Shown piece after piece: positions 4,459 to 54,855 of a DNA stretch of 64,000 nucleotides. Source of the DNA: Enterobacteria phage P922. The notes beneath the pieces are model-generated. The model was not told the DNA's origin, did not search any database, and saw only the letters and a list, made by a program, of their open reading frames with translations. The position numbers were made by a program, and so were the translations under genes. Numbering within the stretch: the stretch's first letter is position 1; each line of letters opens with the position of its first letter. Location of the stretch: sequence record OR999189.1. One strand, 5' to 3'.

Positions 4459-5001
4459 ATGAGAACATTTTTAACTGGTCCTTATCTATCCCTGATGAAT
4501 GCTTTTACACACCATTCTGATGCTAGAGTAGAAGAAATTTGTAATAGTGGATTTTATGTACCTGATTCGTCGCATTTATTTAAAGAATATTGTACACTTC
4601 GTTTAGATGGTGGCAGACAATCTGGTAAATCAACTGCAGTAACTAATTTTGCCGCTAATTGGTTGTATGACGGTGGAACAGTTATTGTTCTTTCTAATAC
4701 TTCAGCTTACGCTAAAATTTCTGCGGGCCACATTAAAAAAGAATTTTCGCGTTATTCTAGCGATGATATTCGATTCCGCTTATTTACTGATTCTGTGCGC
4801 AGTTTTATTGGGAATAAAGGAAGCAAGTTCAGAGGTTTATCGCTTTCGCGGATTTTGTATATAATCGATGAGCCTGTTAAATCTCCTGATATGGATAAAA
4901 TTTACGATATTCATATTGAAACTGTGCACCACTGTTGCAATAGTAAATGCTGCATTGGCGGTATTACTCGTCCGCAGTTTTTCGTAATTGGGATGCAATG
5001 A
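4459..5001 (+). CDS. small P-loop NTPase (Walker A GGRQSGKST, Walker B LYIIDEP)
   Basis: ORF track 4411..5001; start at ATG 4459 chosen for weak GAGAG RBS; ATGs at 4411/4429 also possible. Confidence 0.55.
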   Translation: MRTFLTGPYLSLMNAFTHHSDARVEEICNSGFYVPDSSHLFKEYCTLRLDGGRQSGKSTAVTNFAANWLYDGGTVIVLSNTSAYAKISAGHIKKEFSRYSSDDIRFRLFTDSVRSFIGNKGSKFRGLSLSRILYIIDEPVKSPDMDKIYDIHIETVHHCCNSKCCIGGITRPQFFVIGMQ

Positions 5002-5327
5002 TGACAGATACGCAACTTTTCGAATATCTTTATTTTTCGCCAAAAACTATTAAAAATAAATTGGTGAATCATTTTGAAATTTTGGCAAATAACAACGTCT
5101 TGAGCGAATTTTATCCCAAGCAATACAAATTACAAAAAGGTGTATTCAAAGGATGCAGAGTTTTGTGCACTGCTCCTAATGCAAGATTAATGAATAAAAT
5201 TCCATATTTTACCATGGAATTTATTGATGGACCTTTTAAAGGACTAATCACCCAAAGTTTAATGGCATATGATTCTGAGCCATTTTTAATTAAAGAACAA
5301 TCTTGGATAAATTTATTTTCTAATTGA
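4998..5327 (+). CDS. hypothetical protein
   Basis: ORF track 4947..5327; ATG 4998 overlaps upstream stop (ATGATGA). Confidence 0.45.
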
Positions 5328-5335
5328 GAGGTTAT

Positions 5336-5698
5336 ATGAAAGCATACCAAATTCTTGAAGGCACACATAAAGGTACTATTTATTTTGAAGATGGTATTCA
5401 AGCACGAATTATTGTTTCTAAAACCTTTAAAGAGGATTCTTTTGTAGACCCAGAAATTTTCTATGGTTTGCATGCCCGTGAAATTGAAATTGAAACACAA
5501 CCTACAGTTAAAATCGAGGGTGGTCAACACCTGAACGTTAACGTTCTGCGTCGTGAAACTCTGGAAGATGCAGTTAAGCATCCGGAAAAATATCCGCAGC
5601 TGACCATCCGTGTATCCGGTTATGCAGTTCGCTTTAACTCTCTGACTCCGGAACAGCAGCGCGACGTTATCGCTCGTACCTTTACTGAGAGTTTGTAA
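5336..5698 (+). CDS. GrcA/YfiD-like autonomous glycyl-radical cofactor
   Basis: C-terminal ~60 aa [59 protein letters not shown] with RVSGY glycyl radical motif; GAGAGG RBS. Confidence 0.85.
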
Positions 5699-5919: not shown

Positions 5920-6178
5920 AGATATTAAGGGTTATAAGCCACATACTGAAGAGAAAATCGGTAAAGTGAATGCTATCAAAGATGCTGAAGTTCGTTTAGG
6001 ACTTATCTTTGACGCTTTATACGATGAATTCTGGGAAGCACTAGATAATTGCGAAGACTACGAATTCGCAAAGAATTATGCTGAAAGCCTCGATCAGCTA
6101 ACTATTGCTAAAACGAAACTCAAAGAAGCCAGTATGTGGGCTTGTCGTGCTGTGTTCCAACCAGAGGAAAAATATTAA
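5912..6178 (+). CDS. hypothetical small protein (vs.4 position by gene order)
   Basis: ORF track; position between denV cluster and regB. Confidence 0.45.
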
Positions 6179-6456
6179 TGGCTCAATTAAGCGCAGGGTT
6201 TGGTTATGAGTATTATACTGCCCCTCGTCGTGTATCTGTTGCTCCTAAGAAAATTCAAAGTCTTGATGACTTCCAGGAAGTAGTCCGCAAAGCTTTCCAG
6301 GACTATGCACGTTATCTTAAAGAAGATTCACAGGACTGTCTCGAAGAAGATGAAATTGCTTACTATGAGCAGCGTCTTGAACAGCTTAAAAACCTACATG
6401 AGGTTCGTGCAGAAGTTACAAAGTCTATGAATAAATTGATTAGATTTAAAGAATAA
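6178..6456 (+). CDS. hypothetical small protein
   Basis: ORF track 6136..6456; ATG 6178 overlaps upstream stop (TAATG). Confidence 0.45.
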
Positions 6457-6458
6457 TT

Positions 6459-6488
6459 GTTTACTTTTCCTCTTGACTGTGGTATAAT
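6459..6488 (+). promoter_or_regulatory. T4-type early promoter upstream of regB
   Basis: GTTTAC 6459-6464, 18 nt spacer, TGGTATAAT with -10 at 6483-6488; AGAGGAG RBS follows. Confidence 0.6.
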
Positions 6489-7530: not shown

Positions 7531-7864
7531 AATTTTGGTTTTATGTGTAGGATTAATTTCATTTTCTGCGTTAGCAAATACATCATACACTGAAATTAGA
7601 GAGTATGTAAACCGTACTGCCGCGGATTATTGTGGGAAAAATAAAGCATGCCAAGCTGAATTTGCGCAGAAATTAATATATGCATATAAAGACGGAGAAA
7701 GAGATAAATCAAGCAGATATAAAAATGATACTTTATTAAAACGATATGCTAAAAAGTGGAATACCTTAGAATGTTCAGTTGCGGAGGAGAAAGATAAAGC
7801 CGCTTGTCATTCAATGGTTGACCGTTTGGTAGATTCTTATAATCGAGGATTGAGTACTAGATGA
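7523..7864 (+). CDS. secreted/periplasmic small protein with signal peptide
   Basis: N-terminal MTKILVLCVGLISFSALA signal peptide; four Cys; 113 aa. Confidence 0.6.
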   Translation: MTKILVLCVGLISFSALANTSYTEIREYVNRTAADYCGKNKACQAEFAQKLIYAYKDGERDKSSRYKNDTLLKRYAKKWNTLECSVAEEKDKAACHSMVDRLVDSYNRGLSTR

Positions 7865-8340
7865 TTGTAAAATATATCAAGGGCGATATTGTCGCCCTAT
7901 TTCTTCAAGGTAATATTATTGCGCACGGATGCAACTGCTTCCACACAATGGGCTCTGGTGTAGCGGGTCAATTAGCAAGAGCCTATCCCAAAATTTTAGA
8001 AATAGATAAAACCACTACCGAATACGGTTCTCGTGATAAATTAGGCGATATGTCTATTGTTTTTAAGCATAGTCCTACGGGATTTGGTATATGCTATAAC
8101 CTGTATACGCAATACGAACCGGGTCCTAATCTTGATTATGGTGCTTTAGTAAATTGCATGATAGAATTAAATCTACAGGCAGAAACCCTTTTGTTTAAAC
8201 CAGTAATTTACATTCCACGCATAGGTTGTGGTATTGCTGGCGGTGATTGGGATAAGGTTTCTAAATTAATCGACATGTTTACTCCTGATATTGATTTAAT
8301 AGTGGTGGATTATGAAAGCACATTACCCACATCCGTTTGA
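7861..8340 (+). CDS. macro domain (ADP-ribose binding/processing) protein
   Basis: Motifs GCNCFHTMGSGVAGQLA and IGCGIAGGDWDKV resemble the two glycine-rich loops of macro domains. Confidence 0.65.
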   Translation: MIVKYIKGDIVALFLQGNIIAHGCNCFHTMGSGVAGQLARAYPKILEIDKTTTEYGSRDKLGDMSIVFKHSPTGFGICYNLYTQYEPGPNLDYGALVNCMIELNLQAETLLFKPVIYIPRIGCGIAGGDWDKVSKLIDMFTPDIDLIVVDYESTLPTSV

Positions 8341-8524
8341 CCCTAAAAATAAAGTGGAAATTATTCGTCAATGGGAACGCATTTGCCGTACTAAATGCCC
8401 AATTAATAGTCTACATGATGTAGATAAAGACTACATCGGAACATTCGTTGAATATACCTTTATTGATAAGAAAGGTCGTAAACAACATGTAGAAGAATAT
8501 TGCTTAAAGGTTACATGGTTATGA
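8312..8524 (+). CDS. hypothetical small protein
   Basis: ORF track; overlaps end of macro-domain gene. Confidence 0.4.
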   Translation: MKAHYPHPFDPKNKVEIIRQWERICRTKCPINSLHDVDKDYIGTFVEYTFIDKKGRKQHVEEYCLKVTWL

Positions 8525-8892: not shown

Positions 8893-9474
8893 ATGGCGAG
8901 TTTAATTTTTACTTATGCAGCAATGAATGCTGGAAAATCTGCTTCTCTTTTGACTGCTGCACATAATTATAAAGAACGTGGAATGAGTGTATTAGTTCTT
9001 AAACCTGCTATTGATACTCGCGATTCTGTCTGTGAAGTCGTTTCTCGCATTGGAATTAAACAGGAAGCGAATATTATTACGGATGATATGGATATTTTTG
9101 AGTTCTATAAATGGGCTGAAGCACAAAAAGATATTCATTGTGTATTTGTAGATGAAGCACAGTTTTTAAAAACTGAACAGGTGCATCAATTAAGCCGAAT
9201 TGTCGATACATATAATGTTCCTGTTATGGCTTATGGTCTAAGGACTGATTTCGCCGGAAAATTATTTGAAGGTTCTAAAGAACTTTTGGCGATTGCGGAT
9301 AAACTTATTGAACTAAAGGCAGTTTGTCATTGCGGTAAAAAAGCGATTATGACAGCTCGATTAATGGAAGATGGAACACCAGTTAAAGAAGGTAATCAAA
9401 TCTGTATTGGTGATGAAATTTATGTTTCTTTGTGTAGAAAACATTGGAACGAATTAACTAAAAAGCTCGGTTAG
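8893..9474 (+). CDS. tk: thymidine kinase
   Basis: P-loop AAMNAGKSASLL, VFVDEAQF, zinc ligand CHCG; 193 aa as in T4 Tk. Confidence 0.95.
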   Translation: MASLIFTYAAMNAGKSASLLTAAHNYKERGMSVLVLKPAIDTRDSVCEVVSRIGIKQEANIITDDMDIFEFYKWAEAQKDIHCVFVDEAQFLKTEQVHQLSRIVDTYNVPVMAYGLRTDFAGKLFEGSKELLAIADKLIELKAVCHCGKKAIMTARLMEDGTPVKEGNQICIGDEIYVSLCRKHWNELTKKLG

Positions 9475-48200: not shown

Positions 48201-48494
48201 ATGAAAAAATTTGTTTTTGCTGCAATTTTTGCTTTGGCTTCTTGTACTGCTCAGCCTGCTATGGCAGGTTATGATAAAGATTTGTGCGAATGGTCTATGA
48301 CTGCAGATCAGACTGAGGTTGAAACTCAGATTGAAGCAGATATTATGAATATCGTTGAGCGTGATCGCCCTGAAATGAAAGCTGAAGTACAAAAACAGCT
48401 TAAATCTGGTGGTGTAATGCAGTATAATTATGTTCTGTATTGCGATAAAAACTTCAATAATAAAAATATCATCGCTGAAGTGGTAGGTGAATAA
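48201..48494 (+). CDS. sp: Spackle-like periplasmic protein (61.3 position)
   Basis: 97 aa with signal peptide MKKFVFAAIFALASCTAQPAMA; size and position match T4 Sp. Confidence 0.65.
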   Translation: MKKFVFAAIFALASCTAQPAMAGYDKDLCEWSMTADQTEVETQIEADIMNIVERDRPEMKAEVQKQLKSGGVMQYNYVLYCDKNFNNKNIIAEVVGE

Positions 48495-49120
48495 TGCTTT
48501 ATCAAATGCACAAGTGCAAAGACACGTACAAATATAAAGGTGCCCAGTGTTATATCATTAATCGTGAAAACGCAGGTCCAGGTCATTCGCATCAATCGCG
48601 GTTTGTATTCGTTAAAAACAACGAAATTATAGCAGTTGCTAATTACATGCTTGCGACTAGTGATGTTAATCCGGTGCCTTTCACATATTATAATCTAATG
48701 GACTTGGCGTACGATTATAATTGGTTTAATCATGATAATTTGGCTCATATTGAAGGCGTAGGATTTGACATCTCTTATTCTAGTTACTCGTTGTGTCCTA
48801 TGAGCCGAGCTCATAAAGAGCCTGAATATTTTTCATTTCGTCGGCGTGTAGACTTTGAACGCAGCACAGAGTATATCGGTGGAATCTTTGTTAAAGATAA
48901 TCGAATTACTCGCATTATTTATCCTTTGGGCTGTGGTCAAAAAGATATTGATGTTGATTTAGACTTTACTGAAAACATCATTAATCATATTGCTTCTGTG
49001 TATTTTGATATTGATCATAAAATTGTAATATGTGGATATGAATTACCATCAGAAAAACAGTCTAAAGTGAATGTTTCTATTGATGACCAAATTTTTAATG
49101 CTTTTATGAATAGAGGTTAA
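48494..49120 (+). CDS. hypothetical protein (61.2 position)
   Basis: ORF track; 208 aa. Confidence 0.55.
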   Translation: MLYQMHKCKDTYKYKGAQCYIINRENAGPGHSHQSRFVFVKNNEIIAVANYMLATSDVNPVPFTYYNLMDLAYDYNWFNHDNLAHIEGVGFDISYSSYSLCPMSRAHKEPEYFSFRRRVDFERSTEYIGGIFVKDNRITRIIYPLGCGQKDIDVDLDFTENIINHIASVYFDIDHKIVICGYELPSEKQSKVNVSIDDQIFNAFMNRG

Positions 49121-53606: not shown

Positions 53607-53632
53607 AGCTTCTGAAGTATATGGAGGCTATC

Positions 53633-54256
53633 ATGATTATTAATCTTGCAGATGTTGAACAGTTATCTATAAAAGCTGAAAGTGTTGATTTTCAATATGA
53701 TATGTATAAAAAGGTCTGTGAAAAATTTACTGATTTTGAACAGTCAGTTCTTTGGCAATGTATGGAAGCCAAAAAGAATGAAGCTCTTCATCGGCAGTTG
53801 AATAAAATCATTAAAAAGCATTTAACTAAATCACCTTATCAGCTATATCGTGGTATATCAAAATCGACAAAAGAGCTCATTAAAGATTTACAAGTCGGAG
53901 AAGTGTTTTCAACGAACAGGGTAGATTCATTTACTACTAGTTTGCATACAGCGTGTTCTTTTTCTTATGCTGAATATTTTACTGAAACAATACTTCGCTT
54001 AAAAACTGATAAAGCTTTTAATTACTCTGACCATATCAGCGATATTATACTTTCTTCTCCTAATACTGAGTTTAAGTATACATATGAAGATACTGATGGA
54101 TTAGATTCAGAACGTACTGATAACTTAATGATGATTGTGCGTGAACAAGAATGGATGATTCCAATTGGAAAGTATAAAATAACTTCTATTTCAAAAGAAA
54201 AATTACACGATTCATTTGGAACATTTAAAGTGTATGATATTGAGGTAGTTGAATGA
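53633..54256 (+). CDS. modB: mono-ADP-ribosyltransferase ModB-like
   Basis: R-S-ExE pattern: YRGIS, STS-like region, REQEWMIP; 207 aa. Confidence 0.75.
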   Translation: MIINLADVEQLSIKAESVDFQYDMYKKVCEKFTDFEQSVLWQCMEAKKNEALHRQLNKIIKKHLTKSPYQLYRGISKSTKELIKDLQVGEVFSTNRVDSFTTSLHTACSFSYAEYFTETILRLKTDKAFNYSDHISDIILSSPNTEFKYTYEDTDGLDSERTDNLMMIVREQEWMIPIGKYKITSISKEKLHDSFGTFKVYDIEVVE

Positions 54257-54855
54257 AATATTCAGCAATGCAATTAAAAGATTTTAAAATCAAATCAATG
54301 GATGCATCGGTGCGTGCTTCTATTCGTGAAGAATTACTTTCTGAAGGATTTAATTTATCCGAAATTGAACTTTTAATTCATTGTATTACTAATAAGCCAG
54401 ACGACCACTCTTGGTTAAATGAAATAATCAAATCTCGTTTGGTTCCAAACGATAAACCTCTTTGGAGAGGTGTTCCAGTTGAGACTAAGCAGGCGTTAAA
54501 TCAAGGAATTGATATTATTACATTTGATAAAGTAGTATCAGCTTCATATGATAAAAATATAGCTCTACATTTTGCTTCTGGATTAGAATACAACACACAA
54601 GTTATTTTTGAATTCAAAGCTCCTATGGTATTTAATTTCCAGGAATATGCTATAAAAGCTCTACGTTGTAAAGAATATAGTCCAAGTTTTAAGTTTCCGG
54701 ATAGTCATCGCTATCGTAATATGGAATTAGTTTCAGATGAACAAGAAGTAATGATACCAGCTGGAAGTGTATTTAGAATTGCGGATAGATATGAGTATAA
54801 AAAGCATTCAACATACACTATCTATACTCTTGATTTTGAAGGATTTAATCTATAA
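54253..54855 (+). CDS. modA: mono-ADP-ribosyltransferase ModA-like
   Basis: Paralog of the previous ORF: WRGV, SAS, DEQEVMIP; 200 aa. Confidence 0.75.
   Translation: MKYSAMQLKDFKIKSMDASVRASIREELLSEGFNLSEIELLIHCITNKPDDHSWLNEIIKSRLVPNDKPLWRGVPVETKQALNQGIDIITFDKVVSASYDKNIALHFASGLEYNTQVIFEFKAPMVFNFQEYAIKALRCKEYSPSFKFPDSHRYRNMELVSDEQEVMIPAGSVFRIADRYEYKKHSTYTIYTLDFEGFNL

Follow-up and report, generated by a model that had tools for sequence, protein, structure and literature searches.

In the 64,000-nucleotide stretch of Enterobacteria phage P922 analysed here (record OR999189.1, hereafter the window), the open reading frame (ORF) at 7861-8340 on the + strand is tk.4 of a T4-like phage (Tequatrovirus) and an orthologue of T4 tk.4. 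This gene, also named adfM, is of a known kind and is carried in the window as a strongly diverged allele. The fold, class and active-site residues of its product, Tk.4, were established in this analysis, together with its orthology and synteny with T4 and the purifying selection acting on it. We consider it likely that the window gene encodes an orphan ADP-ribosyl-thymidine DNA glycohydrolase of the TARG1/ALC1-like type that counters DarTG2 of the host. The features that matter for this reading are as follows.

7861-8340, + strand: tk.4 (adfM) coding sequence, 159 amino acids, single macrodomain (ORF, Pfam, PHROG, T4 synteny, AlphaFold2 model).
7927-7977, + strand: loop 1 region, residues 23-39, with H22-G23-C24-N25-C26 and G31-S-G33 (alignments, conservation).
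8110-8112, + strand: codon CAA of Gln84, opposite the catalytic Lys of DarG and TARG1 (three alignments).
8224-8259, + strand: loop 2, residues 122-133, the diphosphate-binding glycine loop (alignments, conservation).

The ORF list gave a reading frame of 159 amino acids from ATG to TGA, which is a real gene and not a chance ORF. Its product matched PHROG 335 (E=1e-71), and homologues of tk.4 were found in 2,788 of 50,697 phage records, spread over many genera. BLASTP aligned the protein with T4 Tk.4 over its full length and without gaps (58% identity, E=1e-70). The surrounding 3.2 kb was 96-99% identical to hundreds of Tequatrovirus genomes, and the gene order regB-vs.1-vs-ORF-tk.3-tk.2-tk.1-tk-rI.1-rI matched that of T4 exactly, and from regB to tk also that of phage UFV-AREG1. 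The ORF was assigned as tk.4 because it occupies the slot between vs and tk.3 in the T4 gene order. An earlier note on this DNA had placed the ORF close to tk, and tk indeed lies 550 bp downstream (8893-9474, 99.5% identical to T4 Tk). Salmonella phage F13076 encodes an identical Tk.4 protein, and proteomics has detected the T2 orthologue (bioRxiv 10.64898/2026.06.19.733364). That tk.4 orthologues match the A1pp/macro domain has been on record since 2006 (PMC1524935), and public records label the gene "tk.4: macro domain-containing protein", "macro domain protein" or "phosphatase ... contains A1pp phosphatase motif".

The same note had described a 159-residue protein with two glycine-rich loops typical of macrodomains. 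Both motifs were located in the protein, GCNCFHTMGSGVAGQLA at residues 23-39 (nucleotides 7927-7977) and GCGIAGGDWDKV at residues 122-133 (nucleotides 8224-8259). Pfam Macro (PF01661) scored 32 bits, above its gathering cut-off of 22 (E=1.3e-7), and the match spanned profile positions 2-117 of 118. Sequence searches of the Protein Data Bank (PDB) with Tk.4 matched macrodomains only, namely BT1257, Poa1p, SCO6735, DarG and TARG1; in the profile search, these scored 74 bits (BT1257), 64 (TARG1), 60 (SCO6735), 58 (Poa1p) and 40-46 (DarG). The AlphaFold2 model, for which the input alignment comprised 63 homologues (database cluster representatives only), had a predicted local distance difference test score (pLDDT) of 94.9 and a predicted template modelling score (pTM) of 0.89. 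The predicted structure had the three-layer alpha/beta/alpha macro fold, and its top structural matches included TARG1 and Poa1p. A non-macro fold or missing catalytic loop residues had been named as grounds for discarding the macrodomain claim; the predicted fold was a macro fold, the active-site loop residues were present, and the claim stood together with the Pfam and PHROG matches. Tk.4 is closest to the TARG1/ALC1-like class of BT1257/SCO6735, DarG, Poa1p and TARG1. Both glycine loops are present and near-invariant, and we propose that they bind ADP-ribose.

We further examined the active site by comparison with DarG, TARG1, BT1257 and SCO6735, taken from the PDB searches, and with gp104 (AdfM) of phage PhiKZ, taken from the methods of its paper; SCO6735 residue numbering was checked against PMC9411070. 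Gln84 of Tk.4 stood opposite the catalytic residues DarG K80 and TARG1 K84 in the MAFFT, hidden Markov model-to-TARG1 and hhalign (98.7% probability) alignments, and its counterpart in SCO6735 is Gln85. The triad that marks the SCO6735/BT1257 subclass was found in Tk.4, with Q84, N25 and G124 aligned to SCO6735 Q85, N27 and G128. N25 (codon 7933-7935) aligned with the conserved catalytic-site Asn, which is N22 in DarG, N27 in SCO6735 and N23 in PhiKZ AdfM, and whose role in these proteins is known from PMC9411070 and PMC13309987. G122 and G124 aligned with SCO6735 G126 and G128, and Ala126 stood at the position of the TARG1 catalytic Asp125. Q84 was invariant in 121 of 121 family sequences, as were Asn80 and Tyr82, and H22, G23, N25, C26, G33 and A35 were kept in 119-121 of them. 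A single-sequence phmmer alignment to BT1257, which placed Q84 opposite an Asp, was rejected as gap-avoiding, because the profile, MAFFT and hhalign alignments agreed with one another and with the published structure-based alignment.

SCO6735 of Streptomyces coelicolor (PDB 5E3B) and BT1257 of Bacteroides (2FG1/2AFC) are stand-alone Gln-type macrodomains of the TARG1/ALC1-like class, with approximately 25-29% identity to Tk.4 (E=2e-13 for SCO6735). They are bacterial and basic (pI 9.5 and 8.4), whereas Tk.4 is phage-encoded and acidic (pI 5.0). On DNA, SCO6735 is more efficient than DarG or TARG1 at hydrolysing ADP-ribose linked to thymidine, and it can rescue cells from DarT; its Q85A mutant is inactive and N27S nearly so (PMC9411070). 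Since Gln-type SCO6735 does that reaction, the missing Lys is no argument against DNA de-ADP-ribosylation by Tk.4. The Gln in place of Lys probably points to SCO6735-type chemistry. This Gln-for-Lys active site is a minor detail beyond the literature that we found.

The function of tk.4 has been approached genetically in T4. The target of DarT2 is thymidine in single-stranded DNA, to which it attaches ADP-ribose, and the DarG macrodomain undoes this modification (PMC13309987). In HIDEN-SEQ transposon sequencing, T4 tk.4 was the single significant gene depleted on a DarTG2-expressing host, and its clean deletion sensitised T4 to DarTG2; the gene, otherwise dispensable on E. coli K-12, was renamed adfM for anti-DarT factor Macrodomain (bioRxiv 10.1101/2025.11.20.689424). 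T4 without adfA and adfN is still resistant to DarTG2 (PMC11825919), which indicates a further anti-DarTG2 factor and fits the tk.4 result. The earlier note had suggested that the phage macrodomain could reverse ADP-ribosylation by host toxins, degrade ADP-ribose-derived immune signals, or be connected with ModA and ModB. Toxin reversal is in line with the requirement for T4 tk.4 against DarTG2 and with the Gln-type active site, and this part of the interpretation held, whereas the other two parts found no support (see below). A phage record that carries this counter-defence can be annotated accordingly, which is useful as many records say 'phosphatase' or 'hypothetical protein', and the presence of tk.4/AdfM helps to predict host range on DarTG2-bearing strains.

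In the mechanism that we propose, the DarT2 toxin of host DarTG2 would put ADP-ribose on thymidines of single-stranded phage DNA, and the modified thymidines would block phage replication. Tk.4 would be produced early in infection as a free-standing macrodomain enzyme, hold ADP-ribose via the two glycine loops and cut the thymine-ribose bond, so that ADP-ribose would be freed and the DNA restored. With SCO6735-type chemistry, Asn25 would hold Gln84, Gln84 would position the distal ribose, and water would do the chemistry. DarG and TARG1, by contrast, use a lysine-based mechanism. The window allele, at 57% identity to T4 Tk.4, would be expected to have the same activity.

Tk.4 is thus proposed to act like the DarG macrodomain, but it is not a member of the DarG family. 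In the DarG macrodomain structures of M. tuberculosis (5M3I), T. aquaticus (5M31/5M3E) and Thermosipho (7OMU), the catalytic residue is Lys80, which is Gln in Tk.4. DarG was the best though weak match of Tk.4 in NCBIfam and PADLOC; the score was 27.7 bits for the DarG equivalog NF048014, against a cut-off of 250, and 27.5 bits for PADLOC DarG, covering the macro part only. Tk.4 lacks a C-terminal domain for DarT binding, and its gene is flanked by vs and tk.3, with no adjacent darT. Because the similarity to DarG was below that to BT1257, TARG1, SCO6735 and Poa1p, there is no indication that Tk.4 arose directly as a 'captured antitoxin'.

PhiKZ gp104 is, like Tk.4, a phage stand-alone macrodomain directed against DarTG2 (Cell Rep 2026, PMC13309987), and it strips ADP-ribose from DarT2-modified DNA in vitro (PMC13309987). 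It is DarG-like and has kept the catalytic Lys (FPTKDNW), whereas Tk.4 is Gln-type and closer to SCO6735. BLASTP of gp104 against window Tk.4 aligned a stretch of 23 residues only (E=1e-3), and gp104 and T4 Tk.4 are non-orthologous proteins of separate lineages. The name AdfM was given to them independently by two groups (PMC13309987; bioRxiv 10.1101/2025.11.20.689424), a naming collision that is likely to confuse annotation. The pI values of window Tk.4 and gp104 were 5.03 and 5.05, respectively; an acidic pI was considered as an objection to DNA binding and dropped, as the equally acidic gp104 de-ADP-ribosylates DNA (PMC13309987).

We next describe the divergence of the window allele. Window and T4 tk.4 were 57-58% identical in amino acids and 64% in nucleotides; for the flanking genes, nucleotide identity to T4 was 90-99%. 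At the amino-acid level, identity to T4 was 99-100% for regB, vs.1, tk and rI.1, 96% for vs, and 87-91% for tk.3, tk.2 and tk.1. In a sliding-window comparison with T4, identity was 100% through the start codon and just beyond, 38-65% over most of ~7970-8340 with a partial rise to 73% near 8115-8174, and back to 80-97% from 8312 on. The divergent tk.4 cassette was sharply bounded at 7899-8340, opposite 4923-5390 of the compared T4 stretch. The two Tk.4 proteins were identical over the first 14 residues and in the motifs H-G-C-N-C...M-G-S-G, N-L-Y-T-Q and P-R-I-G-x-G-I, and all family-invariant residues were the same in both. Loop 2 reads GCGIAGGDW, the family consensus, in the window allele and GAGIGKGNW, a derived form, in T4, and the window protein is 4 residues longer (159 versus 155 amino acids). 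This cassette-like divergence is likewise a minor addition to the literature that we found.

Between the window and T4 alleles, the synonymous divergence (dS) was approximately 1.8, which is saturated, and the non-synonymous divergence (dN) was 0.38, giving a dN/dS of approximately 0.2. No recent positive selection was evident between the alleles. Inside the window-type lineage, purifying selection is strong: the UFV-AREG1 gene, which belongs to this allele, differs from that of the window by 15 synonymous changes and 2 non-synonymous ones (dN/dS ~0.03). The saturated dS and this purifying selection indicate old lineages exchanged by recombination rather than a decaying gene. In the collection of 50,697 records, 318 phages carried the window-type allele at no less than 90% identity, at least 90% identity to the T4 type was found in 224, and 159 had a third type that was 80-90% identical to that of T4. 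At least three old tk.4 alleles have been swapped among T4-like phages. A further reading, which we regard as possible but doubtful, is that the Tk.4-type AdfM counters DarT2 by a third, distinct mechanism and that the diverged alleles are specificity variants. With its short loop and Gln-type site, Tk.4 may differ from DarG-like proteins such as PhiKZ AdfM and also, in part, from SCO6735, and the allele cassettes could be adapted to particular DarT2 toxins, through direct binding, or to particular ADP-ribosylated bases. AdfM biochemistry could be guided by the Gln-type active site and the old swapped alleles, which refine a story that is already known.

Several points weigh against a DNA glycohydrolase in the window. 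DarTG2 resistance is known for the T4 allele only (bioRxiv 10.1101/2025.11.20.689424), and the window allele differs from it at 43% of residues, loop 2 included. The same source is a preprint without peer review, and its authors grade the enzymatic removal of ADP-ribose only as "seems likely". No biochemistry on any Tk.4-type protein was found in the literature. Tk.4 does not have the catalytic Lys of DarG, and two features tied to the DNA activity of SCO6735 (PMC9411070) are also absent. One is the extended mobile loop with Lys89 (Lys89/Lys93 for SCO6735 and BT1257); the alignment of Tk.4 to these proteins has a six-column gap directly after Q84, and the SCO6735-type loop is 5-6 residues longer. 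The other is Val/Ile-25, which is Val25 in SCO6735 and Gly23 in Tk.4. Finally, SCO6735 without catalytic activity still binds DarT and thereby inhibits it in vitro (PMC9411070), and protection therefore need not be hydrolytic.

This last point leads to the explanation that Tk.4 neutralises DarT2 mainly by binding the toxin as a stoichiometric inhibitor, with alleles matched to DarT2 variants, which we judge to be unlikely. The inactive mutants SCO6735 Q85A, DarG K80A and TARG1 K84A are each able to inhibit DarT in vitro, SCO6735 most strongly (PMC9411070), and AdfA, another T-even factor, works by toxin binding with allele-specific activity (PMC11825919). The form of the tk.4 allele, a discrete and deeply diverged cassette in a near-identical backbone, would also suit such matching. 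However, the ADP-ribose-binding and catalytic residues are invariant in 121 diverse members, which fits an active site for a small molecule better than a protein interface; the C-terminal domain with which DarG binds DarT is missing from Tk.4; and the saturated dS and the dN/dS between alleles reflect old divergence and recombination. Hydrolysis, rather than toxin binding, is presumably the protective step. An NAD-metabolite enzyme, either a Poa1p-like ADP-ribose-1''-phosphate phosphatase or an O-acetyl-ADP-ribose deacetylase, is suggested by the structural closeness of Poa1p, yet we find it quite improbable. To our knowledge, the T4-infected cell offers no obvious source of ADP-ribose-1''-phosphate. 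The 'phosphatase' label stems from a domain name (smart00506 A1pp) and not from an assay (PMC1524935), and the only recorded phenotype of the T4 orthologue is DarTG2-specific (bioRxiv 10.1101/2025.11.20.689424).

It is also highly improbable that Tk.4 removes or adjusts the ADP-ribosylation or RNAylation of host proteins by Alt, ModA and ModB. ModB and ModA are both encoded in the window, but their genes, although real, lie 45 kb from tk.4 in other transcription units, and the link drawn in the earlier note found no support. Alt, ModA and ModB modify arginine, whereas TARG1-like macrodomains act on acidic-residue, thymine and uracil linkages; TARG1-class enzymes are not known to be arginine-ADP-ribose hydrolases. 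Arginine-specific macrodomains, such as MavL, are a separate special case (cited in PMC13036486). SCO6735 and TARG1 do act on protein-linked ADP-ribose as well (PMC9411070), but no tk.4 phenotype has been reported on plain K-12 (bioRxiv 10.1101/2025.11.20.689424). Equally hard to credit is that Tk.4 degrades ADP-ribose-derived immune signals, for example Thoeris gcADPR, or reverses the RNA ADP-ribosylation of other toxins. ADP-ribose on uracil in RNA is a further substrate of SCO6735, DarG and TARG1 (PMC13036486), and a non-thymine nucleic-acid substrate is therefore chemically plausible. Against this, SCO6735 is inactive on 2'-OH-linked RNA ADP-ribosylation (PMC11833690), and on 5'-phosphate-linked ADP-ribosylation it is inactive in the results of PMC11833690, although the discussion of the same paper says otherwise. 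CmdTAC, which ADP-ribosylates adenine in mRNA, still defends robustly against T-even phages (PMC11618068), and on that account Tk.4 does not neutralise CmdTAC. For signal hydrolysis by the TARG1/ALC1-like macrodomain class, as suggested in the earlier note, we found no supporting evidence.

Among the eukaryotic members of the class, human TARG1/OARD1 has a Lys84/Asp125 dyad where Tk.4 has Gln84/Ala126, and it also takes off thymine- and uracil-linked ADP-ribose (PMC13036486). Yeast Poa1p is described as an ADP-ribose-1''-phosphate phosphatase; His22 of Tk.4 aligned with its His23 in the common H-x-C-N-C motif, and His23 and Ser30 are the residues mutated in Poa1p PDB entries. A bacterial Tk.4-like member with ~40% identity was found on the chromosome of Pelagimonas phthalicica, solitary among housekeeping genes. 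No DarT-like neighbour was present beside this homologue (6001-6459 of the compared stretch), which makes it an orphan like SCO6735.

At the tk.4 locus, the following expression features were noted.

7845-7864, + strand: translation start region, with a Shine-Dalgarno-like GAGGA at 7845-7849 and an ATGA overlap with the stop of vs, which ends at 7864 (sequence).
8312-8340, + strand: last 29 nt of tk.4, shared with the beginning of tk.3 (8312-8524; ORF list).
6460-6488, + strand: candidate sigma-70-like promoter TTTACT-17-TATAAT with extended TG, upstream of regB (consensus scan).

The ATGA overlap with vs would presumably drive translational coupling of tk.4. The shorter tk.4 of T4 overlaps tk.3 by just 4 nt (ATGA). 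The sequence at 6460-6488 is a weak candidate for the promoter of the co-directional, tightly packed genes regB-vs.1-vs-tk.4-tk.3-tk.2-tk.1-tk, and the number of promoter-like matches in the region was not above the shuffled expectation. A terminator-like hairpin, AGGGCGA-TATTG-TCGCCCT with a T-rich tail, lies at 7880-7898 on the + strand, 20 nt inside tk.4. It is identical in T4 and UFV-AREG1, and the divergence of the alleles starts directly 3' of it. The hairpin folded no better than shuffles (z=-1.33) and was not adopted as a functional element; it may be conserved KGDIVAL coding sequence or a recombination junction.

Three other genes of the window are of interest with regard to ADP-ribosylation.

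48494-49117, + strand: homologue of T4 gene 61.2 (95.7% amino-acid identity).
53633-54253, + strand: ModB ADP-ribosyltransferase (98.6% identical to T4).
54253-54852, + strand: ModA ADP-ribosyltransferase (97% identical to T4).

Gene 61.2 is presumably adfA, a DarT1-binding counter-defence factor. If it is, the window holds a conserved anti-DarT factor in addition to the highly diverged tk.4. An assignment of 61.2 as adfN was rejected; adfN is gene 30.3 (PMC11825919) and lies outside the window. Both ADP-ribosyltransferase genes had been recognised in the earlier note, and their identity to T4 confirmed them. The longest ORF of modB begins at 53621, and homology to T4 begins at 53633.
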